From Clostridia bacterium (lineage in GTDB: Bacteria > Bacillota > Clostridia > TANB77 > CAG-508), in assembly GCA_900770385.1 (NCBI GenBank), contig CAAGKK010000037.1:6195-70194 (forward strand): a stretch of 64,000 nucleotides of DNA, in the 5' to 3' direction. The notes below the pieces were generated by a model. The model saw only the letters and a list, made by a program, of their open reading frames with translations, did no database searches and had not been told where the DNA came from. A program made the position numbers and the translations under genes. Numbering within the stretch: position 1 is the first letter of the stretch; each line of letters begins with the position of its first letter. This document shows positions 72 through 13,200 of this stretch, piece by piece.

Positions 72-1304
72 ATGAGGTTCGGAGAATTTTTTGATTATAT
101 TACAAAGTTGGGAATATATTGTAAGTTATATGACAAACAGATTTCATTAACAAGAAACGATGAAAATGTTAAAAGCAAAGAAATATTTATTGCTACTAAC
201 AGCTATGGTAAATTTTTTAATGAAGGTAGCAATTTTGAGAATTTTATGATGCAATACCAAGAAAGAATGCAAAAGTTACAAACAAATTTGTTTAATAATA
301 ACAATTTTTCCTTGACGGATAGACAAGAAGAAATATCTATACCTACATCGGAAGAATTAAGACAGTTAATTTTAGAAAAGTTTTCTACAATGGATGTAGG
401 TGATATTACTGATTCACAAATATCTCAATATGAATATAGAAAAATAATTGGTATGCAGTATCAAGACATGGATTTATCATCAGAAGATATTAGAGCACTT
501 AATTTATATAAACATGGTTTGTTTGATAAGATTAATGGTTTCTTAAGAGGAGATTTGGGATTTTTAGCTGAAAACAAAATGAGTGAAGAGACTTTTGTAA
601 AAATGTATATACCACAGGTCATAGAATGTATTGGAAGAATTAGTGAAATACAAAAAAAATTTATTTCAAGTAAAGATATGACACTAATTAGGAGAGATGC
701 AAGATGTAATGAGAATATGGAAGAAAAGTTAGAATACGACAATTTTGTTTCTACATCTGCCAATCCTAGATTATTTACTTATTTACTAGATGGAGTTAAA
801 GATGGAGGATTTTTATTTATAAAAGTACCAAAAGGTACACCTGTAATTCCAATGGACATAGTAACGGAAAAACAAATGTCATTAAGAGAGAGTGTAAGCA
901 AGTTTGGTGGAGGAGACATAGGCTATGAAGAATCTGAAATTCTAATTCCAATGTGTGATATTGAAATAAACAATCATTATCAAGCTAAAAATGGAAAAAC
1001 AATGGCTAATGCTACAATTGTAAAACAAAGAAATCCAATCGAAATAATGGAGAAAAGGTTAGAAGAAATGAAAGATATGATTATTCAATATGGTGGAAAG
1101 GAAGAATTAGAAGAGTTAAGAGCAAAAGTCCAAGCTATAAAATCTCAAAGCAATGAAAAGGCAAAACATAGTTTAGATGAATTCCATGATGTAGCCATTA
1201 ATGGTAGAAGTGAATCTACAAATGAAGTGACAAGAGAAACAACACAAGGTGTACGAACAGAGGGCGAATTTGAACAAGAACATAATAATGTAGAGACAAA
1301 ATAA
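72..1304 (+). CDS. ADP-ribosyltransferase (C3/exoenzyme-like, R-S-E type) with an E/K-rich C-terminal tail
   Basis: NAD-pocket motifs occur in the canonical order: YKHGLFDKINGFLRGD (Y-x-IN-x-LR), LIRRD (Arg), FVSTSANP (STS) and GYEESEILIP (ExE). Confidence 0.65.
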   Translation: MRFGEFFDYITKLGIYCKLYDKQISLTRNDENVKSKEIFIATNSYGKFFNEGSNFENFMMQYQERMQKLQTNLFNNNNFSLTDRQEEISIPTSEELRQLILEKFSTMDVGDITDSQISQYEYRKIIGMQYQDMDLSSEDIRALNLYKHGLFDKINGFLRGDLGFLAENKMSEETFVKMYIPQVIECIGRISEIQKKFISSKDMTLIRRDARCNENMEEKLEYDNFVSTSANPRLFTYLLDGVKDGGFLFIKVPKGTPVIPMDIVTEKQMSLRESVSKFGGGDIGYEESEILIPMCDIEINNHYQAKNGKTMANATIVKQRNPIEIMEKRLEEMKDMIIQYGGKEELEELRAKVQAIKSQSNEKAKHSLDEFHDVAINGRSESTNEVTRETTQGVRTEGEFEQEHNNVETK

Positions 1305-1512
1305 TAGTTAGTATAGAAATATATCTATTTAATTAAAAATAAAATATAAAGAATTTAGATGTACTGAAAAATTAAAAATATTTAACAACAGGAGTTTCTT
1401 CGAAAGTGGGACACCCAGGCGTATGTCCCATCCAAAAAGAATTTTCCACAGAATATTTATTATACAAAATTTTTAATAATAAAATAAAGGTTGAAACATT
1501 TTGTTTTAGCCT

Positions 1513-2802
1513 TTATTTGCTATTTGTAAAATATTTATTACTTAAGTTATATAATTCTTTTTTAAATTCTTCAATTTGATTATCATTATAGCTATCCCTT
1601 AATGCAACAGCTTTTTTAGACCATTCTTTGAATTGCTTTTCTTTAAAGTCTTTAGGATGGTTATAATGTCTGCCATACATTTTTTTATATTCTTTTTTGA
1701 ATTCTTTTAAAATATCGCTATTATCAACCTTTTTTTTATATTTGTTTGAAGCACCAATTTCTTTGCAAGTTTTACCAGTATCTTTATATAAATTATTACA
1801 ATATTTTTGGTCATTTCTTCCTTTTTGATATGGATTGTTGCTAGTGGTAGTTGGAATAAATAATCTTCCGCAGTTTTCACACTTATTTATAGTAAAATTA
1901 TTCTGAATTACTTTAAATAACTCAAATTTGATTTGTTCTTCACAATTATTTATCTCATAAACTTCTTCAACATATATATTTTTTGTATGCATTACATTAA
2001 TCAATTCTTCTACAGATAATTGTTTCTCTTTAAAAGTTATATCAGCATTGCAAATATATTTAGTTACAAATTTTGTGTCTAAAAATAATGCGTGGGCAGG
2101 ATTAGTGTTCAAATAATGTAAATCAAAAACATCTTTAGCTTCATATAAATATAATCTTTCTTCATTGCTCAAATTTCGAACAAAAGAATTATTAGAATAT
2201 TCACTTATTAATTCTAATCTTTCTTTCAAGTCGCTTTTTTGATTTATAAGGTCTTTTATTAAGTAATCCTTTATTGTTTCAAAAAATTTTATATATTTAT
2301 TATGTTTCTTTTTCGAGATTTTATCTATTTCAGTAGTCCACTCATACATAATTGTTTGAAGGACATAATGGTTTTCTTCTATTTCTTCAAATATTTCATT
2401 TGGAGTATATTCAGTATTGTCAATATATACTCCAATATTATTCTTGAATAAAAGGTCACTTCTAAATACTCCCGAATTATATGTTTTTATGATTATATCT
2501 ATTAAAGTTTGAGTGTAAAAATGTGTATATGGAGAAAAATTCAAACATTCTTGGACTTTATGAAACATTTCAAATAAAAAATTAACCTTTTTATCCATAC
2601 CATTACATTCTTTATTGCTACAAACAATGTTAATTAATTCTGTATATAGAATTTTTAGTTTATCAAATTCATCATTTTCCATAATTGCAAAATCATATAA
2701 TTTATCTCCAATATTGTATTCAAAATCCAAAGTAGAACCAAAAAATTCTCCTCCATTTTTTAAAATAATTTTATTGTTATTAAGTGTGAAATTACTTGTC
2801 AT
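1513..2802 (-). CDS. Hypothetical protein with a C-terminal Cys-rich (zinc-ribbon-like) region
   Basis: Long ORF of 429 aa. CENCGRLF...YCNN...TCKEIG cysteine pattern. No family recognised with certainty. Confidence 0.45.
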   Translation of the reverse strand: MTSNFTLNNNKIILKNGGEFFGSTLDFEYNIGDKLYDFAIMENDEFDKLKILYTELINIVCSNKECNGMDKKVNFLFEMFHKVQECLNFSPYTHFYTQTLIDIIIKTYNSGVFRSDLLFKNNIGVYIDNTEYTPNEIFEEIEENHYVLQTIMYEWTTEIDKISKKKHNKYIKFFETIKDYLIKDLINQKSDLKERLELISEYSNNSFVRNLSNEERLYLYEAKDVFDLHYLNTNPAHALFLDTKFVTKYICNADITFKEKQLSVEELINVMHTKNIYVEEVYEINNCEEQIKFELFKVIQNNFTINKCENCGRLFIPTTTSNNPYQKGRNDQKYCNNLYKDTGKTCKEIGASNKYKKKVDNSDILKEFKKEYKKMYGRHYNHPKDFKEKQFKEWSKKAVALRDSYNDNQIEEFKKELYNLSNKYFTNSK

Positions 2803-3138
2803 AACTGTGTTTCCTCCATTTTTTAAATAGAATATAGCTATTTTGATTTTTAGTTTATCTATAGACTTTGAAAAATCTATTTACAACACTATTTTAGCAT
2901 CTTATAATGATTTTAGCAATATAGAAAATAGAAACTTGAAATAACTATTTTCTATCAACAGCACATTGAAAATTGAATAACAAACTGCAAGCACAGATAA
3001 TGAAACTTCTGTCCGGCTAACGTGATGTAAAGGGGCGGTTCGCTAAAGGTGGAATGAGGGCAAATCTCATATGAGTATTTAATTTACTACTTGTAGTTTT
3101 AAAATTAAAGTAATATTTTTAAATTTTTAATAATAGTA

Positions 3139-3345
3139 TTGAAAAGAAAGTTGGTGAGAATTTTGAAAAAGGGTTTGAAGATTACATTTATAAATCCTAA
3201 TACTGAAGAACAAATAGTACAAGCTATGGCAGGAGTTCTTGCTTATAATTTGGATGAGAATGATGAAAATATAAAATTTGACTACAACAATTCAAATACT
3301 TATCAAAATTCTCACAAAGAAATAGAAGATGAAATTGAATTATAA
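3139..3345 (+). CDS. Small hypothetical protein (non-ATG start)
   Basis: ORF of 68 aa only. TTG start, no clear RBS. Confidence 0.2.
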   Translation: MKRKLVRILKKGLKITFINPNTEEQIVQAMAGVLAYNLDENDENIKFDYNNSNTYQNSHKEIEDEIEL

Positions 3346-3380
3346 TGACAAAAAATATAGAAAAATTTTTACAAAAAGTC

Positions 3381-3409
3381 TTGATATTTTAATAAAAAGT
3401 TTGTATAAT
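3381..3409 (+). promoter_or_regulatory. Sigma-A type promoter of the type III TA locus
   Basis: TTGATA (3381-3386), 17-nt spacer, then TGtTATAAT (extended -10, TATAAT at 3404-3409). A 5' hairpin atagtagatat/atatctactat follows. Confidence 0.6.
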
Positions 3410-3449
3410 GAATATAATAGTAGTAGATATTTAATATCTACTATAATTA

Positions 3450-3545
3450 AAAATGTGAGTCGCAACCCTATTTGCGAATTAAATGGATAGGTGAGAAAAT
3501 GTGAGCCGCAACCCTGCTTGCGAGATATAAATGGGCAGGTGAAAA
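3450..3545 (+). ncRNA. Type III antitoxin RNA candidate: two tandem 46-48-nt repeats plus the start of a third
   Basis: Unit 1 is aaaatgtgagtcgcaaccctatttgcgaattaaatggataggtgag. Unit 2 is aaaatgtgagccgcaaccctgcttgcgagatataaatgggcaggtga. Each unit holds a short hairpin (cgcaa/ttgcg). The repeats lie between a promoter and a terminator, directly upstream of a ToxN/AbiQ-like ORF. Confidence 0.7.
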
Positions 3546-3565
3546 AATGTTAATTATAGTAAAAT

Positions 3566-3598
3566 GTGGGGTCTATAAAAAAATAGATCCCATATTTT
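3566..3598 (+). terminator. Intrinsic terminator between the antitoxin repeats and the toxin gene
   Basis: Hairpin tggggtctat-aaaaaa-atagatccca followed by tatttt. Confidence 0.6.
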
Positions 3599-3622
3599 CA
3601 TAAAAGGAGAAATGTAATAAAA

Positions 3623-4099
3623 ATGGTAATAGAAGATGGAAAATTTTACTTTATAAAAGATGAATTTTTTGATGTATTTAAAGATTATGGTTTGATGGTA
3701 AATAAAGAAAATGGAAATAAAAGACCGTGTTACTTTTGTTTCAGAGATAGACAAAACAAAGAAATAATATGGTTTGTTCCAATATCTACTAAATATGACA
3801 AATATAAGAAAATCTATGACATAAAAAAAGTTAAAAGTGGAAAAAGACCAGTATATAACTTTGTTTTTGGTAATGTATTGGGAAAGAAAGCAGTATTTCT
3901 TATACAAAATATATTTCCTACAACTATAAAATATATAGAGAAAAAATATAGAAATTCTAATATGGATGTTGAAATTCCAGAAATTGTTAAAGAAGAAGTT
4001 ATTACAAAAGCATTAAGAGTAGTAAATCTTGCAGAAGATGGTGTAAATATTCCATTTTACAATATAATAGAGATGAGAAATATATTACTAAAAAGATAG
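3623..4099 (+). CDS. Type III TA toxin, ToxN/AbiQ-superfamily endoribonuclease-like (CptN-like by size and repeat length)
   Basis: 158 aa. N-terminal FYFIKDEFFDVF...NKE...RPCYFCFRD...IIWFVPISTKYDKYKKIY resembles ToxN/AbiQ/CptN-type toxins. The locus architecture (promoter-repeats-terminator-ORF) is diagnostic. Confidence 0.6.
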   Translation: MVIEDGKFYFIKDEFFDVFKDYGLMVNKENGNKRPCYFCFRDRQNKEIIWFVPISTKYDKYKKIYDIKKVKSGKRPVYNFVFGNVLGKKAVFLIQNIFPTTIKYIEKKYRNSNMDVEIPEIVKEEVITKALRVVNLAEDGVNIPFYNIIEMRNILLKR

Positions 4100-4144
4100 A
4101 ACAGTGACAATGGCACACAAAATGACACTGAAAGAGAACTAATC

Positions 4145-4290
4145 AAATGTACTCGCCACCCTGTTGGCGACAAATAAATTCACAAGTGAACAGATGTTAC
4201 TCGCAAACCTACTTGCGACAAATAAAAGCGTAGGAGGACAAATTGAAACCGCTGACCAATATGCGGTATATAAGTAGTTGGGGGGTGAAG
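4145..4290 (+). repeat. Second array of three diverged antitoxin-like 47-50-nt units downstream of the toxin stop
   Basis: D1 is aaatgtactcgccaccctgttggcgacaaataaattcacaagtgaac. D2 is agatgttactcgcaaacctacttgcgacaaataaaagcgtaggaggac. D3 is aaattgaaaccgctgaccaatatgcggtatataagtagttggggggtgaag. The hairpin is kept by compensatory changes (tcgcaa/ttgcga, tcgcca/tggcga, accgc/gcggt). Confidence 0.6.
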
Positions 4291-4292
4291 TT

Positions 4293-4340
4293 TAAAATCT
4301 ATTCCAAAATAAAACGGAGTAGATTTTTTATTTTTCGTAT
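4293..4340 (+). terminator. Terminator closing the TA transcription unit
   Basis: Hairpin aaaatctattcc...ggagtagatttt followed by a T-rich run. Confidence 0.45.
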
Positions 4341-4419
4341 TGTCTTTTTACAACTAATATGCTAAAATGCAACAGAACGAAAACAACGAAACAGAAAAAA
4401 TAAAGAAAGTAGTGATGTT

Positions 4420-6054
4420 ATGAAAATTGCAGCATATTGTAGGGTATCAACTGAAAAAGAAGCACAAATAGACTCATTAGAAAAGCAAATAGAATTTTTT
4501 AATGAATTTACAAAAAAGAACGGATATGAATTGTACAAGCTATATGCAGATGAAGGAATATCAGGAAAACAAATAAAACACAGAAAACAATTTCAACAAA
4601 TGATGATAGATGCCAAAGCCAAAAAATTCGATAAAGTAGTAGTAAAAGATGTAAGCCGTTTTGCAAGAAATACAGTAGACTTATTACAAAGTGTAAGAGA
4701 GTTAAAATCTTATGGTGTACAAGTTGATTTCCTAAATAATGGAGAAGTAATGGAAGGTGGCTCTGAATTTATACTAACAATTTTAGGAGCAATGGCACAG
4801 CAAGAAAGTGCAAATATGTCTAAAAGAGTTAAATTCGGAAAAGATATTACAGCCAAAAAAGGAAGAGTGCCGAATCTGGTATTTGGATATGACAAAATTC
4901 CAGATGAAAGATATACTTTAAAAATAAATGAAGAAGAAGCAAAAATCGTAAAAGAAATATTTGAAAGTTACGTATATAAAGGAATTGGAACAACAAAAAT
5001 AGCATGGAACTTAAATGATAGAGGAATACGTACTAAAAAGACAAAATCAAAATGGGTACAAACATCTATTGTAAGAATGCTTAAAAATCCAATATATACA
5101 GGAAGAGTAACAAATAAAAAATCAGAGGTAACAGACTTTATAACAGGAACAAGAAAAGAATTGCCAGAAGAAGAATGGATAGTTGTTGAAAGACCAGAAA
5201 TGAGAATAATATCAGACGAGCTATTTAACAGAGCACAAGAACTTTTAGAGCAAAGATCAAACGAATTTAAATTAAATAACAAAAGAGAAAAAACAGAATA
5301 TGTATTTAGCACACTTATCTATTGCAAACATTGTGGATATTCATTTAGAAGAATAAAGAGAAAATATACAGCTGATGGACCAGAATATATAAGATGGGTA
5401 TGTAGTGGAAGAAACTCAATGGGAGTAAACCATTGTCCAAATACAACTGTTATTGATGAAGAAGAACTTTTAAATGCAATAAAAATCTATTTAAAAAGTA
5501 TAATAAAAAATAAAAAAGATTTTATGAAAGCTGTTGAAAAAGAATTTGAAAAGATTACAAAATTAAGAGAAAACAATGAAAGAAGTGAAGAGAGTTTTTT
5601 AAAAGAAATCGAAAAAGTAACAGTTAAAAAACAAAAATATATGGAGATGTTTCAAAACGAAATAATCAATATACAAGAATTAAAGAAATATACAAATCCA
5701 ATAAATGAAGATATAGCAAGACTGGAAAGAGAATTAAAACTAATAACATCAGAAATAAAAGAAAAAGATGTACTAGAAAAAGAACTTAATAAGACAATAA
5801 AAACAGTAGATGACATATTAAATAATCAAACAATAACAAATGCAATGTTAAAAACAATTATAGATGTAATTGAAGTAGATTCAGATTCAAATGTAGAAGT
5901 AAGACTAAAACTATTAAATGAAATAGGAACAAATGAACCAGTAATAACAAGATTCGAAGACATTTACCAAAGTTCCGAAGAAAAAGAAAACACAAAAAAT
6001 AAAGAAAATTCTATCGTTACGAAAAGTAACAACAGTACACAAAGATGTAAGTGA
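4420..6054 (+). CDS. Large serine recombinase (resolvase/invertase N-domain + recombinase domain + zinc ribbon + coiled coil)
   Basis: MKIAAYCRVSTEKE catalytic-Ser N-terminus. FARN, GAMAQQES. Cys cluster CKHCGY...WVCSGR...HCPN. 544 aa. Confidence 0.9.
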   Translation: MKIAAYCRVSTEKEAQIDSLEKQIEFFNEFTKKNGYELYKLYADEGISGKQIKHRKQFQQMMIDAKAKKFDKVVVKDVSRFARNTVDLLQSVRELKSYGVQVDFLNNGEVMEGGSEFILTILGAMAQQESANMSKRVKFGKDITAKKGRVPNLVFGYDKIPDERYTLKINEEEAKIVKEIFESYVYKGIGTTKIAWNLNDRGIRTKKTKSKWVQTSIVRMLKNPIYTGRVTNKKSEVTDFITGTRKELPEEEWIVVERPEMRIISDELFNRAQELLEQRSNEFKLNNKREKTEYVFSTLIYCKHCGYSFRRIKRKYTADGPEYIRWVCSGRNSMGVNHCPNTTVIDEEELLNAIKIYLKSIIKNKKDFMKAVEKEFEKITKLRENNERSEESFLKEIEKVTVKKQKYMEMFQNEIINIQELKKYTNPINEDIARLERELKLITSEIKEKDVLEKELNKTIKTVDDILNNQTITNAMLKTIIDVIEVDSDSNVEVRLKLLNEIGTNEPVITRFEDIYQSSEEKENTKNKENSIVTKSNNSTQRCK

Positions 6055-6181
6055 GAGATTACTAAAGATAAATCCAGCATTAGCACATGATGTTAGAATA
6101 ATATTAGATGAAAATAAAGCAGAAAGACATATAAGAGGAGGTATGGCAACAAAATTAAAATACAAAAATAAAAAGAAATAA
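6032..6181 (+). pseudogene. spoIIID: 3' segment of spoIIID (last ~48 codons) with no 5' half in the window
   Basis: The frame starting at 6035 reads VHKDVSERLLKINPALAHDVRIILDENKAERHIRGGMATKLKYKNKKK*. As I recall it, the SpoIIID C-terminus is ...STVHKDLTERLPEINPDLANEVKEILDYHKSIRHLRGGEATKLKYKK. The upstream in-frame sequence has no ATG and no HTH similarity, and a stop lies at 5945. Confidence 0.75.
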
Positions 6182-6204
6182 AGATTTTTCTTTATTTCTT
6201 TTAG
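6173..6204. terminator. Bidirectional terminator shared by the spoIIID fragment and veg
   Basis: aagaaataaaga-tttt-tctttatttctt, flanked by an A-run and a T-run. Confidence 0.6.
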
Positions 6205-6211
6205 TTATTTA

Positions 6212-6508
6212 TTAAATTAAAGCTTTAGATTTTTTTACATCAACTACAGGAGGTATTAAAGGACTGTAACCCTCACCATCAAAAACATCAACCTCTACAG
6301 TTCTTGTTAAAACATCTTTATAACTATAAGTGACATTTCTTTCTTCATCATCGTATTTTACGATAAATAAATTAGGATAAGTTTTTTCGATTGTAGCCTC
6401 TTTTTCAAAAAATCTACTTCTTCCAAGAGTACCTTTTACAATTATCTTTTGTCCAATTTTTTCTGTGATATCTGTTTTTAAATTTGTAATATCATTTGGT
6501 AATATCAT
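6212..6508 (-). CDS. veg: Veg (biofilm/sporulation-associated small protein, DUF1021)
   Basis: Family-like sequence (...GRSRFFEKEATIEKTYPNLFIVKY...VTYSYKDVLTRTVEV) and conserved yabG-veg synteny. Confidence 0.8.
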   Translation of the reverse strand: MILPNDITNLKTDITEKIGQKIIVKGTLGRSRFFEKEATIEKTYPNLFIVKYDDEERNVTYSYKDVLTRTVEVDVFDGEGYSPLIPPVVDVKKSKALI

Positions 6509-6537
6509 TTAACCACCTACTTTATTAAGATAGGCAC

Positions 6538-6566
6538 ATTATATCATTATCTACATAAAAAGTCAA
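6538..6566 (-). promoter_or_regulatory. Near-consensus sigma-A promoter of veg
   Basis: The minus strand reads TTGACT, 17 nt, TATAAT. Confidence 0.6.
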
Positions 6567-6671
6567 AATAACATTATGCGACTTAAAATCAGCAAACATG
6601 CTAAAAATAAACTAAAAATGCATATAAGGATGTGAATTTTACAATTAGATTACAATATTATTACAAAAATA

Positions 6672-7487
6672 TTACAAATCTCTTTTTCCCATAGAACCTA
6701 CACCATCAATACCTTTTTTTCCATCTCTTAGGTCCTCTATAATATCATTTATAGTTAAAAATTTATTTCTAGATGTTGTAGCTATTTTTTCAGCAACTAT
6801 TAAAGGATCCATGAAATCGATTAAAATTCTAGCAGGAGAAGATGCAAAATTTGCACCAGAAGTTATTATTGCCTCAAAAAAACTTTGACATGCACCAGCA
6901 AATATAGCTAAATCTTTATTTGAAGGAATTATTTTTCGAGCTTCTATAACTGATTGAATAAAATACTTGGAATTTCTATAATTATGAATATCATTATAAT
7001 TAATTCCAGCTTTTATCATGCTATCATGTCCTGTTACTATTAAAATATCTGGTTTATATTTTGGTATTAAAGATTTTACCATTAAGGGTTGTTTAAATTC
7101 TGGTACATTGCGAACAATAGCGTTTAAACCTATTTTATTATAGTATCTTCTGGATTTTTCTGAATATCTTTTATCACCATCTAAATGTAAAATCATACCG
7201 GTATTTTGCATAAATCGGTATTTATTTTTTATGATTTTTTTATTTAATGAGGACAAAATTCTATTTTCTATTATGTTATCTGTTCTACTAATAGGATTAT
7301 CAAAATTATTAGAATCAATAATTAATAAATCATCTATAAATGCATCAGCAATAATTCTAGTTGTAATGCCTTTTAATATAGCAATTGCAGTACCATTTGT
7401 ACTACTAATTATTTTATCTACAGAAAATAAGATATCACATCCATAGGATTTTCGAGCAACAATATCATTTTTTCTTATTTTCAACAT
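6672..7487 (-). CDS. yabG: Sporulation-specific protease YabG
   Basis: IVARKSYGCDILF, ILHLDGD, ILIVTGHD and IFAGACQSFFEAIITSGANFASSPARILI match the YabG family along the full length. Confidence 0.85.
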   Translation of the reverse strand: MLKIRKNDIVARKSYGCDILFSVDKIISSTNGTAIAILKGITTRIIADAFIDDLLIIDSNNFDNPISRTDNIIENRILSSLNKKIIKNKYRFMQNTGMILHLDGDKRYSEKSRRYYNKIGLNAIVRNVPEFKQPLMVKSLIPKYKPDILIVTGHDSMIKAGINYNDIHNYRNSKYFIQSVIEARKIIPSNKDLAIFAGACQSFFEAIITSGANFASSPARILIDFMDPLIVAEKIATTSRNKFLTINDIIEDLRDGKKGIDGVGSMGKRDL

Positions 7488-7655
7488 TACATATCACTCC
7501 ATAATATATGTCCTTATAGCATAATATGTCGAAAAAGGTTATTTGGTGAATTGACTTATACAAAGCTAATCAAAAATTATTAGTAATAGGAATTTTTTTG
7601 GATTTTATTAATATAATGAAGTATGTATTTATGAGAAAATAAGGAGGTAATTTTA

Positions 7656-9206
7656 ATGGAGGTAGATACAACTAGACAGAACTTAACAATTAATAAACTA
7701 GTTAGTACTAAGAAACAAACAGTTACAATTGAAGGAGATATAATAGTACCAGATGTTAAGCCTGATATACTAAATACAATAGATAGCGTAGGAAATGTAT
7801 GCGTATACAAAAAAGAAGTTTTAGATGGAAAAGTAAGAATAGATGGAGGAGTAAATGTTTATTTAATATATTTAGCAGATTCTCAAACAGATACTACAAG
7901 GGGGCTAAATACAACATTAGATTTTACACAAATAATGGACATGGAAGCTTGCAAATCAGATATGGATGTAATTAGTAATCTTGGCGTTAAAAATATAGAA
8001 TGTAAAGTACTAAATGGAAGAAAAGTAAATATAAAAGCAGAAGTAGAAATAGAAATGCAAATATATTCAAATGAAAATATAAAGATTTTAAAAGAAATTA
8101 ATAACATTAATGAAATTCAAACATTAAATTCAAAAATGAATGTAAATACTCTAATAGGAAAAGGTTCAACAAAAGCATTTGCAAAAGATACAATTTCGTA
8201 TGATAATTCAGATAATTTAATGGAGATTTTAAAAGCAGAAGTTAGAGTTGTTAATCAAGAAATAAAAACAAGTTATAATAAGGTATTATTAAAAGCGGAT
8301 GCAAATACTAAAATTATGTATTTAACAGAAGATGGCAGTATAAGAAAGACACAATTAAATATACCTATAATAGGATTTGTTGATGTTGCAGATGTTTCGG
8401 AAGATGATATTATAGATAGCAATTTTGAAATAAAAAATATAATTATTAAACCAAATTCAGCAGAACAACATTCTATTTATATAGAAATAGAAGTGGAAAT
8501 TGGCTGCAGAGTATATGGAACAAATAACTTTGAACTAATACAAGATATGTACTCTACAGAAGAAGAAATAAATTTTACAACAAGAAGAATTGAAACTGAA
8601 AGAAATAAGAAAAACAAAAAAGATATTTGTGCTATAAATGAAAAAGTAGTAATTCCAGAAATAGCTAATAATGAAATTTATGATGTAGAAATTAACCCTA
8701 TTATTAATAACATGAATATATTAAATGGAAGAATTATATATGAAGGAGAATTAAATTTAAACTTTTTATTCTCATCAAATGTAAGTTTGCAAATTGAAGC
8801 AAAAGACTATAAAATACCATTTAGTTTTGAAGTAAATGACGATTGTATAAATTCAAACAAAAATATAATTACTAAAACAGAATGTATAGGAGATAGTTTT
8901 AAAATAGTGGCAGAAGGGACTATAGAGTGTAATATAAAATTACAATTTAATATGGATATGTATGATACAGCTAAAATAAATATAATAGACGAAATTAAGG
9001 TAGCTGAAAACAGAAACAATCAACAAAACAGTATGACTATATATATAGTAAAATCAGGAGATTCATTATGGAATATAGCTAAAAAATATAGAACTACTAT
9101 AGAAAATATTATGAGACTTAATAATTTGGAGGAAGATAAAATTAATGTTGGAGAAAAACTATATATACAAAGGTATAATGTTAACATGATTCAACATACT
9201 GCATAA
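7656..9206 (+). CDS. SPOCS (DUF3794) repeat protein with a C-terminal LysM domain; SpoVID/SipL-like spore coat morphogenetic protein
   Basis: C-terminal LysM (YIVKSGDSLWNIAKKYRTTIENIMRLNNL...GEKLYIQ). Position next to yabG, as in clostridial sipL loci. Confidence 0.65.
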   Translation: MEVDTTRQNLTINKLVSTKKQTVTIEGDIIVPDVKPDILNTIDSVGNVCVYKKEVLDGKVRIDGGVNVYLIYLADSQTDTTRGLNTTLDFTQIMDMEACKSDMDVISNLGVKNIECKVLNGRKVNIKAEVEIEMQIYSNENIKILKEINNINEIQTLNSKMNVNTLIGKGSTKAFAKDTISYDNSDNLMEILKAEVRVVNQEIKTSYNKVLLKADANTKIMYLTEDGSIRKTQLNIPIIGFVDVADVSEDDIIDSNFEIKNIIIKPNSAEQHSIYIEIEVEIGCRVYGTNNFELIQDMYSTEEEINFTTRRIETERNKKNKKDICAINEKVVIPEIANNEIYDVEINPIINNMNILNGRIIYEGELNLNFLFSSNVSLQIEAKDYKIPFSFEVNDDCINSNKNIITKTECIGDSFKIVAEGTIECNIKLQFNMDMYDTAKINIIDEIKVAENRNNQQNSMTIYIVKSGDSLWNIAKKYRTTIENIMRLNNLEEDKINVGEKLYIQRYNVNMIQHTA

Positions 9207-9355
9207 AATAATACTAATAAGCTTATAAATTTAAAGCATATTACAATATAACAAAAGAGTAAGAGAATATCTTACTCTTTTGCTGATAATATTAGATTAA
9301 TATTTTTTATAAAAAAGTAATACAAAATAGGGGAGATTAAAATAAGAGGTGAAAA

Positions 9356-10069
9356 ATGGACTTATTATATTCTAGACCTAGATTAAAAATTCCTAGATTA
9401 TGTGTATTTAAAAGTAATAGAAAAAATAAAAATGAAAAGAAAATAGAAAAGTTAATATTTATATTAATTTTAATTGTTTTTAGTATGATATGTTTAATTA
9501 AAGCTGTTGAACCAATATTTAACGAATTGTGTAAAGATAAAGCTAAAAGTATTGCGACAATTATATGTAATAGTAAAACAACTGAATGTATGCAAGGTTA
9601 TAATTATTCAGACTTTATAATAATACATAAAGATGACAAAAACAATGTTGTAATGCTAGAATCCAACATGGTTAATATAAATTCAGTAACATCTGATATA
9701 GCACAAAAAATTCAAGAACAAATAAATAATACAGAAGATAGCAATATTTCAATTAGTTTAGGGAGTTTTACTGGAATTAGTTTGTTATCTGGAAAAGGTC
9801 CAAGGATACCAATTGAGATCTCAACTATAGGAAATATTTCAACTAATTTCAAAAGTGAATTTATAGAAAAGGGAATCAACCAAACTTTACATAGGCTATA
9901 TTTAGAAATTGAATGTGAAATAAGTATATTAACACCATTTAATACAATTAATGAAAAAATAAAGAATGAATTTTTAATTACAGAAAATATTATAGTAGGA
10001 AATATTCCAGATGCGTATTACAATATAAAAGGAGTAACAGCAAATGATGCTTTAGAAGTAGTAGAATAA
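9356..10069 (+). CDS. yunB: Sporulation protein YunB
   Basis: 237 aa, a single N-terminal TM, overall YunB-like sequence. Good RBS (aagaggtga). Confidence 0.6.
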   Translation: MDLLYSRPRLKIPRLCVFKSNRKNKNEKKIEKLIFILILIVFSMICLIKAVEPIFNELCKDKAKSIATIICNSKTTECMQGYNYSDFIIIHKDDKNNVVMLESNMVNINSVTSDIAQKIQEQINNTEDSNISISLGSFTGISLLSGKGPRIPIEISTIGNISTNFKSEFIEKGINQTLHRLYLEIECEISILTPFNTINEKIKNEFLITENIIVGNIPDAYYNIKGVTANDALEVVE

Positions 10070-10109
10070 GAAAAAAGCTGTCAATATTTTTAATATTGGC
10101 AGCTTAAAA

Positions 10110-10436
10110 TTATTGTTCTTTAATGATAACTTTTGCTATATCATAAATTAGTTTTAATTTATCTGGTGGACAATCTTTTAGCAAAATAGAAAATTCTTCA
10201 TTTAGATAGTGGTTAGATGTACTACCAGTTCCAGATAAAACATCTCCCTCGGAAATATCTAATAAATCGCATATTTGATTTAATCTATTTAAATTAATTT
10301 TAGAATTTCCTCTTTCAACTCTACTTAAAAAGGCAACAGAGATGTCAATTTTTTCAGCAAGTTGTTCTTGAGTATAGCCTTTTTCTATTCTTGCTTTTTT
10401 TAATCTTTCTCCAATAATAGAATAATCTAAAGACAT
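10110..10436 (-). CDS. XRE-family HTH transcriptional regulator
   Basis: N-terminal HTH: GERLKKARIEKGYTQEQLAEKIDISVAFLSRVERG. Confidence 0.8.
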   Translation of the reverse strand: MSLDYSIIGERLKKARIEKGYTQEQLAEKIDISVAFLSRVERGNSKINLNRLNQICDLLDISEGDVLSGTGSTSNHYLNEEFSILLKDCPPDKLKLIYDIAKVIIKEQ

Positions 10437-10560
10437 TTATATCACCCTTTCTTTTTTATAAAATATAGCATTACAAATTTATATTTTACAGAAAGCAATA
10501 GGTTAAATTATACTGTTGGTATAATTTAACCTATTTGTCTTAAATTATTCAATTTTGAAG

Positions 10561-11163
10561 TTAAAAAGTAAAACTTCTTAATAGGAAATCCCTAGTAAAT
10601 GGAACATATAATAATATACATAGTAGGATAAAAACAATAAAAATAGTTAATACAAAAGCTATTAAATTTTTTACCCAATGGTCTATTTTGTACTTTATAA
10701 TATCTATAATCGAAGGTTCATAATAAGTTCTATTTTGAGATGTAGTTCTATTTGTATTTTGAGGTGTATTTTTTATATTATTAACAGTAGAATTAGTATA
10801 TTGTGGAGTAGAATAAGTATTGTTATTCTGAGCCGAAGAATGATTATAATTAGTATTGTAATTATTCTTTAATTTAGAAATCTCAGAAGATAAAACCTGA
10901 TTATCTTTAACTAATTGATTATATTTGTTTATATCAATTATTGGTTCTGTTATATTTAATTGGTCATCATATTTTTTCTTTTTTTCAGAGTCAGATAAAG
11001 TTTCATAAGCTTCACTAATTTTTTTGAAGCGTTCTTCTGCAAGTTCTTTATTTTCTTTAGTAGAATCTGGATGATACTTTTTTGCAAGAGTTTTATAAGC
11101 CTTATTTATAACTTCAGAAGAAGCATGTCTACTAACCTCTAATTCTTCATAATAATTTTTCAT
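10561..11163 (-). CDS. J-domain (DnaJ-like) protein with a C-terminal membrane anchor
   Basis: [31 protein letters not shown]-domain with the HPD motif. N/T/Q-rich linker. C-terminal hydrophobic helix. Confidence 0.75.
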
Positions 11164-11327
11164 AATTTACCTCTTAAAAAGTATAACAAATATATAATGT
11201 AAAGTAAACAGTTTTGTAATACTATAAAAAATATTTTTTAATAATCAAAGATAAGTCTTGCAAAAATAAAAAACTATGATAAAATAAGAGAAAAAATGTT
11301 CGAGTTTTAAATATTGAGAGGTAAAAA

Positions 11328-11930
11328 ATGATAGCATATCTTAATGGAATATTAGAATTGAAATTTAATGGATACATTATAATAGATGTTATGGGAGTTG
11401 GATATAAAGTTTTTATGTCAGAAACTTCAATAAACAAATTAGGAGAAATAGGAGACAAAGTAAAAGTATACACACACTATCATGTAAGAGAAGATGAGAT
11501 TAGCCTTTATGGATTCTTAAATATAGAAGAATTAAACATGTTTGAATTATTAATATCTGTAAGTGGTGTTGGAGCAAAATCTGCATTAAATACTTTAGCA
11601 TATATAGAACCATCAACATTTGCGTTAGCAGTTGTATCAAATGATACGAGTAAACTAGTAAAAATTCCTGGAATTGGAGCAAAAACTGCAGCAAGAATAG
11701 TATTAGAACTAAAAGATAAACTAAAAAATCAGGATATAGTTAAAAATAAAGTAGATAAAATTGAAAGTAATATAGAAAATAAAGAAAATATAGAAGAGGC
11801 AATAACTGCACTTCAAGTATTAGGATATAATAGAAAAGAAATAGAAAAAATATTTGAAAAAATAGAAGATACTAATATTTCACTTGAAGAGTTAATAAAA
11901 AAAGGATTAAAATACTTATCAACAAGATAA
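11328..11930 (+). CDS. ruvA: Holliday junction branch-migration complex subunit RuvA
   Basis: MIAYLNG..., GVGYKVF, LISVSGVGAKSALNTL and IPGIGAKTAARI HhH motifs. Confidence 0.9.
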   Translation: MIAYLNGILELKFNGYIIIDVMGVGYKVFMSETSINKLGEIGDKVKVYTHYHVREDEISLYGFLNIEELNMFELLISVSGVGAKSALNTLAYIEPSTFALAVVSNDTSKLVKIPGIGAKTAARIVLELKDKLKNQDIVKNKVDKIESNIENKENIEEAITALQVLGYNRKEIEKIFEKIEDTNISLEELIKKGLKYLSTR

Positions 11931-11955
11931 ATTACAATTAGAATAGGAGAAATTT

Positions 11956-13200
11956 ATGGAAGATAATAAACCATTAGCATATAGAATGCGTCCTAGAACA
12001 CTAGAAGAATATGTTGGACAAGAACATATATTAGGAAAAGATAAAATATTATATAGAACAATAAAAGCCGATAGATTATCAAGTATAATATTATTTGGAC
12101 CTCCAGGCTGTGGTAAAACTTCGCTTGCAAAGGTTATAAGCGAAACTACAAAATATAAATTTGAAAAAATAAATGCAGTTACCTCAGGAGTTTCAGATAT
12201 AAAAAAGATAATAGAAGATGCAAAAAATGTGTTTTTAAATCCAACAGGAAAATGTATATTATTTATAGATGAAATTCATAGATTTAATAAATTACAACAA
12301 GATGCATTACTTCCAGCAGTTGAAGATGGTACTATTATTTTGATTGGAGCAACAACAGAAAATCCGTATTTTTCTGTAAACAAAGCTCTAATTTCTAGAT
12401 CAATGGTATTTAAACTAGAACCTTTAAATGAAAATGATATTTTAAAAGTTTTAAAGATGGCGCTTGAAAGAAAAGACGGATTAGGAGAGTACAATATAAA
12501 TATAAGTGATAATACTTTAAAAAATATTGCAAAGATTTCAGGAGGAGATGTAAGAACAGCATTAAATGGATTAGAAATAGCAGTGCTTACAACTTCAATG
12601 GATAAAGATGGAATAATTAATATAACAGACCAAATTGCAGCAGATAGTATGCAAAAAAAGAAAACTTTTTTTGACAAATCAGGAGATAGTCATTATGATA
12701 ATATAAGTGCATTTATAAAATCTATGAGAGGAAGCAATCCAGATGCAGCTATTTTTTATTTAGCGAGAGCATTAAATGCTGGTGAAGATCCTATGTTTTT
12801 AGCTAGAAGAATTGTAATTGCTGCATCAGAAGATGTAGGAATGGCAAATCCAAATGCATTAGTAGTTGCTACTTCTGCAATGCAAGCTGTTCATCAAATT
12901 GGAATGCCAGAAGCCAGGATAATACTTGCTGAAGCTACAATATATGTTGCAACATCTAAAAAATCAAATGCTTCATATTTAGCTATAAATAAAGCAATTG
13001 AAGATGTTAGTACAAAAGATACAGGAGAAATACCAATGCATATTAGAAATGCACCTGCAGAAGGAATGAAGGATTTAGGATATTCTAATGGATATAAATA
13101 TCCACATGATTATCCAGGACATGTTGTAGAACAGCAATATTTACCAGATAAAATGCTTGGAACAAAATATTATTTAAAAGATGAAAATATCAAAAATTAA
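11956..13200 (+). CDS. rarA: Replication-associated recombination protein A (RarA/MgsA AAA+ ATPase)
   Basis: Walker A GPPGCGKTSLA, FIDEIHRFNK, and the MgsA C-domain ISAFIKSMRGSNPDAAIFYLARALNAGEDPMFLARR. Confidence 0.9.
   Translation: MEDNKPLAYRMRPRTLEEYVGQEHILGKDKILYRTIKADRLSSIILFGPPGCGKTSLAKVISETTKYKFEKINAVTSGVSDIKKIIEDAKNVFLNPTGKCILFIDEIHRFNKLQQDALLPAVEDGTIILIGATTENPYFSVNKALISRSMVFKLEPLNENDILKVLKMALERKDGLGEYNINISDNTLKNIAKISGGDVRTALNGLEIAVLTTSMDKDGIINITDQIAADSMQKKKTFFDKSGDSHYDNISAFIKSMRGSNPDAAIFYLARALNAGEDPMFLARRIVIAASEDVGMANPNALVVATSAMQAVHQIGMPEARIILAEATIYVATSKKSNASYLAINKAIEDVSTKDTGEIPMHIRNAPAEGMKDLGYSNGYKYPHDYPGHVVEQQYLPDKMLGTKYYLKDENIKN

Follow-up and report, generated by a model that had tools for sequence, protein, structure and literature searches.

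A predicted CptIN-family type III toxin-antitoxin locus on a mobilizable element inserted in spoIIID of a Clostridia bacterium

Here we describe a region of Clostridia bacterium DNA that is very likely to be a functional type III toxin-antitoxin (TA) locus of the CptIN family, carried on an integrative mobilizable element inserted in the sporulation gene spoIIID. The window analysed is a stretch of 64,000 nt (GCA_900770385.1, contig CAAGKK010000037.1, positions 6,195-70,194 of the forward strand), and coordinates below refer to positions within it. The locus was compared with 80 related loci, one per gut Clostridia species genome; active-site conservation was counted over 81 toxins, pseudoknot pairs were counted on an alignment of 56 distinct CptI units, and variation within the element was read from six near-identical element copies. 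These comparisons show a genuine and ordinary member of a known family, with the order promoter, units, terminator and ribosome-binding site the same in every related locus inspected, and with three toxin subtypes (types 1, 2 and 3), each accompanied by a matching array. What is new here is a set of three more CptI-like units 3′ of the toxin gene, at 4144-4288. An original prediction made from the sequence had listed five parts of the locus, from promoter to open reading frame (ORF), and all five are there, none more than a few bases from where it had placed it.

Toxin gene and leader

The toxin gene and the leader elements that surround the antitoxin array are as follows.

3381..3409, + strand: predicted sigma-70-type promoter, TTGATA (3381-3386), 17 nt, TATAAT (3404-3409), with 11/12 consensus matches
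3415..3449, + strand: 5′ hairpin at the predicted transcript start, with 17-nt arms that are 88% complementary (-12.1 kcal/mol, z -4.7)
3561..3599, + strand: intrinsic terminator, a hairpin that separates the antitoxin array from cptN; its 16-bp stem (-19.8 kcal/mol, z -7.7) precedes UUUUCAU
3604..3610, + strand: ribosome-binding site AAAGGAG, read from the sequence, 12 nt before the ATG
3623..4099, + strand: toxin gene cptN, 158 aa, predicted endoribonuclease (NF047359, 4RMO, Foldseek and dN/dS)

[quoted passage not shown] A sequence search likewise matched the ORF to the CptN chain of PDB 4RMO (E 3.8e-19), with ∼34% identity to Eubacterium rectale CptN. The resemblance to ToxN/AbiQ/CptN-type enzymes had originally been assigned to the N-terminal half; it is a resemblance to CptN, and it is not confined to that half but spans residues 6-155. 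Among Pfam, PADLOC and NCBIfam, a CptN model was found in NCBIfam only: a Pfam scan of the toxin gave no significant family, ToxN included, at E ≤ 1 and two weak unrelated sub-cutoff matches, and the PADLOC defence-protein models gave no match to it.

The AlphaFold model of the toxin is moderately confident (pLDDT 68) and finds 4RMO_A as its best Foldseek match (E 2.4e-8, TM 0.63), with MazF and CcdB folds ranking after it. S55, K57 and Y109 are invariant in 81/81 toxins and position 56 is Thr or Ser; Ser55, Thr56 and Tyr109 align with the CptN active site, which consists of a Ser-Ser/Thr-Arg triad and Tyr104, and Arg53 of that site is replaced by the invariant Lys57. The protein belongs to the CptN family and has a predicted CptN/MazF-like fold; its aligned active site keeps the catalytic Ser and Tyr, as in E. 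rectale CptN, and differs from it in having Lys for the triad Arg. The two enzymes also differ in that Asp81 and Ser85, which specify the scissile adenine in E. rectale CptN, are not conserved and align with Val and Ala here, so that cleavage specificity cannot be read off from the alignment. The gene is under purifying selection (median dN/dS 0.15), and the identical CptN protein is on record in 360 contigs.

The promoter read as TTGATA, 17 nt and TATAAT stands, but its extension to “TGtTATAAT” was slightly off: the -10 region reads TTTGTATAAT, in which the TG abuts the -10 hexamer, so there is no canonical TGnTATAAT extended -10. A TTGAnn-17-TATAAT promoter lies at the equivalent position in the related loci inspected, and a weaker promoter-like site also scores at 3532-3560 in a promoter scan. 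The 5′ hairpin is found in type 1 and type 3 loci, with a different hairpin in its place in type 2 loci. The intrinsic terminator, first proposed at 3566-3598, is confirmed as a slightly longer hairpin whose stem is a consensus structure in 40 related loci, with compensatory changes in 3/14 pairs. A simple terminator scan missed it, and flagged the stem of downstream unit A (below) on the wrong strand. Finally, a 12-nt inverted repeat, 3439-3450 with 3550-3561, brackets the array as a candidate long-range helix; this helix is not in the minimum free energy (MFE) fold, is missing from type 2 loci and shows no covariation.

The antitoxin array

Between the 5′ hairpin and the terminator lie two full repeat units and part of a third.

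3450..3495, + strand: CptI unit 1, 46 nt (TRF, nhmmer and pair counts), with stems S1 at 3460-3465/3472-3477 and S2 at 3467-3471/3487-3491
3496..3543, + strand: CptI unit 2, 48 nt (TRF, nhmmer and pair counts), with stems S1 at 3506-3511/3518-3523 and S2 at 3513-3517/3535-3539
3544..3553, + strand: start of a third unit, AAAATGTTAA, which gives a third inter-unit junction (recurrence of the AAAATGT motif)

TRF reports the repeats at 3449-3550 with a period of 46, 2.2 copies, 83% matches and a score of 148, in agreement with the two tandem 46-48-nt repeats and the beginning of a third that had been described. The junction motif AAAATGT occurs three times, at 3450, 3496 and 3544, and is kept in related loci, and the junction at the start of the third unit would be used as a cleavage site too. 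In nhmmer searches all 80 related loci carried exactly two full units at an equal distance upstream of the toxin gene, and the only other units within ∼8 kb of these loci lay directly downstream of the toxin. An arrangement of repeats and toxin as regular as this is not due to chance.

MFE folding cannot show a pseudoknot, and folds of single units were no better than those of shuffled sequences; the structure was therefore tested by counting pairs on the alignment of the 56 units. Stems S1 and S2 of an H-type pseudoknot were paired in 95.5% of cells, as against 30-48% in shifted registers, and 7/11 pairs had changes on both sides; 0/500 shuffles reached the observed score. Covariation thus supports the reading of the upstream repeats as encoding an H-type pseudoknot RNA of the CptI type. 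Each repeat does contain the short conserved hairpin that had been noted in it, but this is really one stem of the pseudoknot; the pseudoknot nature of the repeats and the CptI-like units downstream had both been missed. Neither a permissive Rfam scan of the region nor a gathering-threshold scan of the whole window gave a matching family, and Rfam has no CptI model.

The predicted structure resembles E. rectale CptI, itself an H-type pseudoknot with a one-base L1 and a long, A-rich L2 that makes an A-minor twist: here L1 is a single C, and the L2 loop of unit 2 holds AUAUAAAUG, identical to L2 (A27-G35) of the E. rectale RNA. The L2 loop of unit 1 is 2 nt shorter than that of unit 2 and, since single-nucleotide changes in the L2 loop of E. 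rectale CptI abolished antitoxicity, unit 1 may be the weaker antitoxin. The array is invariant among the six near-identical element copies, in which 0/104 columns vary.

As a whole, the locus is arranged like E. rectale CptIN (PDB 4RMO; PMC3401426; PMC4627078), with a promoter, about two repeats of ∼45 nt, a terminator and a toxin of ∼155 aa that is related by profile, sequence and predicted fold. The repeats are 46 and 48 nt here and 45 nt in E. rectale, and the single-stranded junction is 14 nt compared with 11 nt. Published ranges for CptIN (repeats of 40-48 nt in 1.9-3.4 copies, mean toxin length 149 aa; PMC3401426 Table 2) accommodate these repeats, the 2.2 copies and the 158-aa toxin, which bears out the earlier preference for CptIN over ToxIN, a family with means of 38 nt and 2.8 copies; the locus falls outside the original ToxIN, with its 36-nt repeats in 5.5 copies (PMC3401426). 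ToxIN of Pectobacterium atrosepticum and AbiQ/antiQ of Lactococcus share the same logic, in which a repeat-RNA antitoxin is cut by its own toxin, a terminator sets the ratio of the two and the RNA forms a pseudoknot; ToxIN differs in its toxin family, its repeat length and number, its 3:3 triangular complex, where that of the CptIN family is a 2:2 heterotetramer of protein and RNA, and its proven abortive infection.

The element in spoIIID and the role of its cargo

Downstream of the toxin gene lies the right end of the element.

4420..6054, + strand: large serine recombinase of the element (Pfam Resolvase, Recombinase and Zn_ribbon_recom)
6029..6181, + strand: 3′ portion of the interrupted spoIIID, at the element's right junction (tblastn, residues 36-76 of intact SpoIIID, 90% identity)

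The 3′ part of spoIIID begins at ∼6029 and overlaps the end of the recombinase gene, and the suggestion of a spoIIID-intervening element is thus upheld, with cptIN as the last cargo before the recombinase. A search of the window found no 5′ part of spoIIID, which places the left end of the element before position 1. The possibility that element sequence completes the left spoIIID fragment was rejected, as the translation diverges after residue 40 (...SKSTVH).

Recombinase homologues of 85-98% identity lie downstream of cptN in 30/80 related loci, and the spoIIID 3′ part follows the recombinase in 25 of those 30. Both spoIIID halves are seen in loci L002, L007 and L051, the three among the 80, and in L081-L084. 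In 13 further loci cptIN lies at one end of a small element that interrupts a CotJC-like Mn-catalase gene; cptIN stands beside a recombinase or att junction in at least 43/80 loci, and ∼37/80 have no recognisable recombinase context. Complete copies are integrative mobilizable elements of ∼10 kb (the elements measure about 5-10 kb) with a Mob_Pre relaxase. The known E. rectale system differs from the present one, which lies inside an element that splits a sporulation gene and has orphan units behind it.

Sporulation genes interrupted by intervening elements include sigK (skin), spsM (SPbeta), gerE (gin) and yabG (yin). As in these cases, an element with a serine recombinase at one junction splits a mother-cell sporulation gene; in contrast to them, the target is spoIIID, and the element is small, non-phage and mobilizable, encodes a Mob_Pre relaxase and carries a type III TA locus as conserved cargo. 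The literature searched, whose coverage is incomplete, contained no account of an element intervening in spoIIID, nor of such an element with a type III TA, and this silence is weak evidence of novelty.

By analogy with E. rectale CptIN and ToxIN, a single promoter would transcribe the 5′ hairpin together with the two CptI units. Most transcripts would end at the 3561-3599 hairpin and a minority would read through into cptN, so that the RNA would stay in excess of the toxin. CptN would cut the precursor within the A-rich GA(A/G)AAAAUG junctions, freeing pseudoknots of 46-48 nt that would then bind CptN in a closed, inactive protein-RNA ring. Should transcription stop or the element be lost, the RNA would be expected to decay before the protein, and free CptN would cleave cellular RNA and arrest growth.

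Based on this analogy and on the genomic association, the most likely biological role of the locus is post-segregational stabilisation of the element, which would have to remain in the germ line and yet appears built to excise. E. rectale CptIN raised plasmid retention from ∼50% to 100%, and in tests with more than 200 coliphages it was not protective (PMC4627078). It is possible, but rather doubtful, that the main role is instead abortive infection, with phage shutting off transcription or degrading CptI and the freed CptN killing the cell, and with the element carrying cptIN as beneficial cargo. Type III ToxIN and TenpIN do abort phage infection (PMC3401426), defence genes are often borne by mobile elements, and the family is not restricted to the elements described here, as shown by L081, which holds a second, element-independent cptIN copy, and by the loci that lack a recognisable recombinase context. 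However, CptIN gave no protection in either published test (PMC3401426, PMC4627078), CptIN of E. rectale stabilised a plasmid, the toxin is unmatched in PADLOC, and we found no phage-borne CptI mimic or cptN: the toxin had no tblastn match in phage genomes, and searches of viral contigs for the repeat units gave single chance-level matches for a 14-base pattern and zero matches for two specific patterns. Furthermore, the tight placement of cptIN by a recombinase or att junction fits a module for element maintenance. Because the published phage tests used E. coli and coliphages (PMC3401426, PMC4627078), they leave room for defence in the native host, and stabilisation and abortive infection are not mutually exclusive.

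Orphan CptI-like units and significance

The region between the toxin gene and the recombinase contains the additional units and a terminator.

4144..4190, + strand: orphan unit A, with one S2 mismatch in this window (nhmmer and pair counts)
4191..4238, + strand: orphan unit B, with both stems intact (nhmmer and pair counts)
4239..4288, + strand: orphan unit C, similar to E. rectale CptI (alignment with the 45-nt RNA of 4RMO)
4294..4340, + strand: second terminator, which ends the cptN 3′ region before the recombinase promoter, with a 12-bp stem (-12.3 kcal/mol, z -3.8) and then a U run

Unit A shares 79% identity with type 2 cognate units and 72-73% with the upstream units of its own locus; for unit B the figures are 92%, with the second cognate unit in type 2 loci (e.g. 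L052), and 69-71%, with the units of its own locus. Unit C, which is also present in L001, L002 and L081-L084, keeps both stems through compensatory changes (CCAC/GUGG to CCGC/GCGG, and ACCGA/UCGG to ACCAA/UUGG). The terminator at 4294-4340 is similar to the leader terminator of type 2 loci. No toxin matching units A-C is present.

Constraint on these units is relaxed relative to the cognate array. Stem-breaking cells number 9/140 in orphan units versus 3/560 in cognate units (p 5e-5), and 8/145 columns vary in the orphan array compared with 0/104 in the cognate array (p 0.02, among near-identical copies). The stem-breaking mutations differ from one near-identical copy to the next, falling in unit A in the window, in unit B in L081 and L082, and in unit C in L084. 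Across loci the orphan array erodes stepwise, from two units to one hybrid unit, a 31-nt stub and none. Because a matching toxin is absent and constraint is relaxed, the orphan units are probably remnants of antitoxin arrays that belonged to other CptIN subtypes, the toxins of which have been lost.

It is unlikely, in our judgement, that the units at 4144-4288 are functional, either as extra antitoxin for their own toxin or as decoys against CptN of another subtype, although several observations would suit such a function. Among the orphan units examined, all six S1 and all five S2 pairs are intact in 11/16, with one compensatory variant (UCUAC/GUAGA), and the close likeness of unit B to a cognate type 2 unit and the compensated stems of unit C point the same way. 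The units are on the toxin strand, with no terminator before them and one after, and more than one cptIN can occur per genome. A precedent for decoy antitoxins exists in the pseudo-ToxI of phage PhiTE (PMC3475682), which, like orphan antitoxins that serve as anti-addiction modules, places antitoxin-like repeats on a mobile element without their cognate toxin; the units described here differ in that they occupy the 3′ region of another toxin's gene, itself intact, and in their relaxed constraint. Against function stand this relaxation, the breakage of different units in different near-identical copies, and the reduction of the array across species to hybrids, stubs or nothing. In addition, CptI RNAs are highly selective (PMC4627078), and the second cptIN of L081 is of type 1, not type 2. 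A more specific form of the proposal, which we think quite improbable, is that the units of the cptN 3′ UTR form a decoy panel (two of type 2 and one of the E. rectale type) that neutralises other-subtype CptN of the host or of rival elements at spoIIID. If so, the element could enter or displace others without triggering killing, and the panel would be an RNA-based anti-addiction or anti-defence array of a kind so far known only from phage pseudo-ToxI.

Two further readings concern the locus itself rather than the downstream units. It is highly improbable that it is an inactive remnant with a dead toxin and decaying repeats: truncated cptN genes are known in the CptIN family (PMC3401426) and the catalytic Arg is replaced by Lys, but the ORF is full length with a median dN/dS of 0.15, Lys57 is invariant in 81 toxins and therefore a subfamily trait and not a lesion, and the cognate array is without polymorphism and has nearly all of its pairs intact. 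Least credible is the idea that the repeats act as DNA, whether as iterons, as att sites or as sites for recombinase binding, rather than as RNA antitoxin, for although they sit on a mobile element near a recombinase gene, compensatory changes maintain two crossing helices on one strand, the repeats are always between the promoter and terminator upstream of cptN, also in loci without a recombinase, and the actual element junction is inside spoIIID at ∼6029.

As a TA locus, the CptIN system described here adds little, given that the family, a structure and a curated annotation model already exist. The value of its context is moderate: in dozens of uncultured gut Clostridia species, small serine-recombinase elements that split spoIIID and a CotJC-like Mn-catalase gene carry members of one CptIN clade as conserved cargo. 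The three toxin subtypes with their matching arrays, together with the eroding orphan arrays, document in compact form how toxin and RNA have co-evolved and how TA loci turn over. The spoIIID elements also provide a natural case in which to ask whether a type III TA keeps in the germ line an element whose excision from the mother-cell genome would be programmed.

A CptN-family toxin and its leader

The product of cptN is a member of the CptN family. Pfam and PADLOC scans returned nothing for it, and the profile comparison proposed in the original prediction matched the NCBIfam equivalog NF047359 ("type III toxin-antitoxin system CptIN family toxin") well above its 90-bit cutoff (154 bits, E 2.5e-45), with toxin residues 6-155 aligned to the whole model. 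In the PDB, the CptN chain of 4RMO, the solved E. rectale CptIN complex, is its sole match by sequence (E 3.8e-19). An AlphaFold model of moderate confidence (pLDDT 68) likewise has 4RMO_A as its best structural match (E 2.4e-8, TM 0.63), followed by MazF and CcdB proteins, in line with published work relating type III toxins to the Kid/MazF fold. In an alignment with E. rectale CptN, the toxin has S55, T56, K57 where the E. rectale enzyme has its S51, S52, R53 triad, and Y109 in the place of Tyr104. The window toxin and all 80 homologues share S55, K57 and Y109 without exception and have Thr or Ser at position 56; E. rectale Asp81 and Ser85 are not conserved. The full profile match, a median dN/dS of 0.15 against homologues and the record of an identical toxin on 360 contigs indicate that cptN is intact, constrained and common.

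Features of the cptIN locus and its downstream flank (window positions)
3381-3409, +, sigma-70-type promoter (TTGATA, 17 nt, TATAAT; 11/12 consensus matches)
3415-3449, +, 5' hairpin (-12.1 kcal/mol, z -4.7)
3449-3550, +, tandem repeat (period 46, 2.2 copies, 83% matches)
3450-3495 and 3496-3543, +, repeat units 1 and 2; a third unit begins at 3544
3561-3599, +, hairpin, the leader terminator (-19.8 kcal/mol, z -7.7), followed by UUUUCAU
3604-3610, +, RBS
3623-4099, +, cptN ORF, 158 aa
4144-4190, +, orphan unit A, same RNA family as the cognate units, closest to type 2 cognate arrays
4191-4238, +, orphan unit B, same family and closest relatives as unit A
4239-4288, +, orphan unit C, aligns with E. 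rectale CptI, both stems kept through compensatory changes
4294-4340, +, second terminator (-12.3 kcal/mol), resembling the type 2 leader terminator
4420-6054, +, large serine recombinase gene
~6029-6181, +, spoIIID 3' part from residue 36, overlapping the recombinase 3' end

Each of the parts originally listed, from promoter through 5' hairpin, repeats, terminator and RBS to the ORF, is present in the sequence. For the promoter, both hexamers and their spacing stand, and the TGn extension also claimed for it is inexact, the sequence being TTTGTATAAT. The leader terminator stem is a consensus structure across 40 loci. A perfect 12-nt inverted repeat (TACTATAATTAA / TTAATTATAGTA, at 3439-3450 and 3550-3561) brackets the two-unit array exactly, and the 5' hairpin uses its left arm as a 3' arm, so that an alternative long-range helix around the array is possible; this helix does not appear in the MFE fold, is missing from type 2 loci and showed no covariation.

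Antitoxin RNA and downstream orphan units

The fold of the antitoxin RNA, the conserved order of the parts and the constraint on both toxin and antitoxin are established here. In an alignment of 56 distinct upstream units, with S1 pairing columns 11-16 to 24-29 and S2 pairing columns 18-23 to 41-45, 95.5% of cells in the proposed pseudoknot pair; shifting the partner strand by 1-3 columns lowers this to 30-48%. Both sides change in 7 of the 11 pseudoknot pairs, and none of 500 shuffles reached the observed covariation. Compensatory changes are seen in S1 (UCGCAA/UUGCGA vs UCGGAG/CUCCGA) and in S2 (CCUAU/AUAGG, CCUGC/GCAGG, CCUAC/GUAGG, CCUGU/ACAGG). In topology the units match the solved 45-nt CptI, with S1, a one-base L1, S2 abutting the S1 3' strand and a long A-rich loop, and AUAUAAAUG in unit 2 is identical to E. 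rectale CptI L2 (A27-G35), a loop in which single-nucleotide changes abolish antitoxicity in that system. The L2 loop of unit 1 (3478-3486, AUUAAAUGG) is 2 nt shorter than that of unit 2 and of most homologous first units, as it is in a few close relatives of this locus.

A protein-guided scan of species-representative genomes yielded 80 related loci, all from uncultured gut Clostridia. By repeat-unit profile, exactly two full units precede the toxin in 80/80, ~170 and ~122 nt ahead of its start codon, and over ~8 kb per locus no further units were found except directly downstream of the toxin (15 loci). The toxins fall into three subtypes (49, 24 and 7 loci) with 65-71% identity between them, and array junction and stem variants are specific to each, which fits published toxin-RNA co-evolution. 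On L081, one of the contigs encoding the identical toxin, a second complete cptIN (594-1330, minus strand), with a type 1 array and a toxin of 80% identity, lies ~1.5 kb beyond the element, so more than one CptIN module per genome is possible.

The three pseudoknot units downstream of cptN were overlooked in the original prediction; the window holds no second toxin. Unit B shares 92% identity with the second unit in loci like L052, a type 2 example, and only ~70% with the units upstream of cptN in the window. The observations favour reading units A-C as relics; that they act as a decoy or spare antitoxin is the less likely reading. The reading as relics rests on an excess of stem breaks, greater variation among copies and stepwise erosion across species. 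Stem-breaking cells number 9/140 in orphan and 3/560 in cognate units (p 5e-5, or 0.03 after leaving out one badly decayed orphan unit), and such changes differ from one near-identical copy to another. When six near-identical element copies are compared, variable columns number 0/104 in the cognate array, 5/477 in cptN and 8/145 in the orphan stretch (p 0.02 and 0.003). Across species the stretch erodes by degrees: some loci have two units, others a hybrid unit or a 31-nt stub, and others none, with the flanking frame and terminator still in place. Directly after the cptN stop codon, at 4102-4130 in the window and likewise in L006, L040 and L012, a degenerate palindrome is accompanied by a third half-site (AGTGCCAATGGCACT ... 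TGGCACT in L006 and L040), an arrangement that resembles a protein-binding site.

The element and its genomic setting

In full, the element is integrative and mobilizable and spans ~10 kb. On contigs encoding the identical toxin, it runs from a spoIIID 5' fragment through cargo that includes HTH_36, a Mob_Pre relaxase and DUF6076 to a small ORF, cptIN, the recombinase and the spoIIID 3' fragment. Complete copies lie at about 2640-12610 in four such contigs (L081-L084), with cargo varying between copies; smaller versions of ~5 kb also occur (e.g. locus L051). The left spoIIID fragment departs from the gene after ...SKSTVH, so spoIIID is truly split. The 5' part was not found in the window, where a 410-aa ORF (72-1304) without a Pfam match occupies the corresponding cargo place. 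Just past the 3' fragment, a sporulation-related core gene cluster (6212-9206) with a Pfam-confirmed veg, and with yabG-like peptidase U57 and SipL/LysM genes inferred from syntenic L081 genes, places the element in a conserved sporulation neighbourhood.

Among the 80 species loci, cptIN is followed by this recombinase in 30, and the split spoIIID 3' part is visible in 25 of these. In 13 further loci (L004, L008-L010, L013, L015, L017-L019, L021, L025, L034, L036) the same cptIN subtype edges a different small element, with another large serine recombinase and a radical-SAM gene, which interrupts a Mn-catalase (CotJC-like) gene; that gene resumes 120-220 nt past cptN in most (52 nt in L017, 853 nt in L004). 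At six loci (L026, L035, L044, L055, L065, L073) cptIN adjoins an intact spoIIID, on a side that varies by locus, an arrangement not explained by precise excision, which could not leave cptIN behind; L065 retains orphan units and DUF6076 fragments, and the ORF upstream in L026 ends in an orf68-like C-terminus. Directly upstream of cptIN, a 68-aa ORF (3139-3345) without a Pfam match recurs at 73-92% identity in nearly all elements with this recombinase and is a candidate recombination directionality factor or regulator. The phage collections searched contained no match to the toxin or to the repeat units.

Proposed mechanism and role

By analogy with E. rectale CptIN and ToxIN, transcription would start from the one promoter and be attenuated at the terminator, giving an excess of RNA over toxin. 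CptN would then cut A-rich junctions to yield unit pseudoknots with 2',3'-cyclic phosphate ends and assemble with them into a closed, inactive complex, from which it would be released once RNA supply stops. Since the junction is 14 nt here and 11 nt in E. rectale, no exact position can be given for the cut. The locus further differs from the solved system in an Arg to Lys change in the toxin and in its genomic setting. E. rectale CptIN raises plasmid retention from about 50% to 100% and did not abort >200 coliphages; together with the consistent siting of cptIN next to either the recombinase gene or the att junction in excisable elements, these results make element maintenance, on balance, its most likely role. 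Phage defence in the native host is a live alternative, if a less probable one.

In the literature, of which coverage was partial, we found no account of an element splitting spoIIID, or of any type III toxin-antitoxin system on a sporulation-gene intervening element, which is weak evidence of novelty. The original reading of a CptIN-like type III system was correct: the locus is a bona fide CptIN of an uncharacterised subclade. This kind of system is already known, and the main value of the finding lies in its genomic context and in the orphan arrays.
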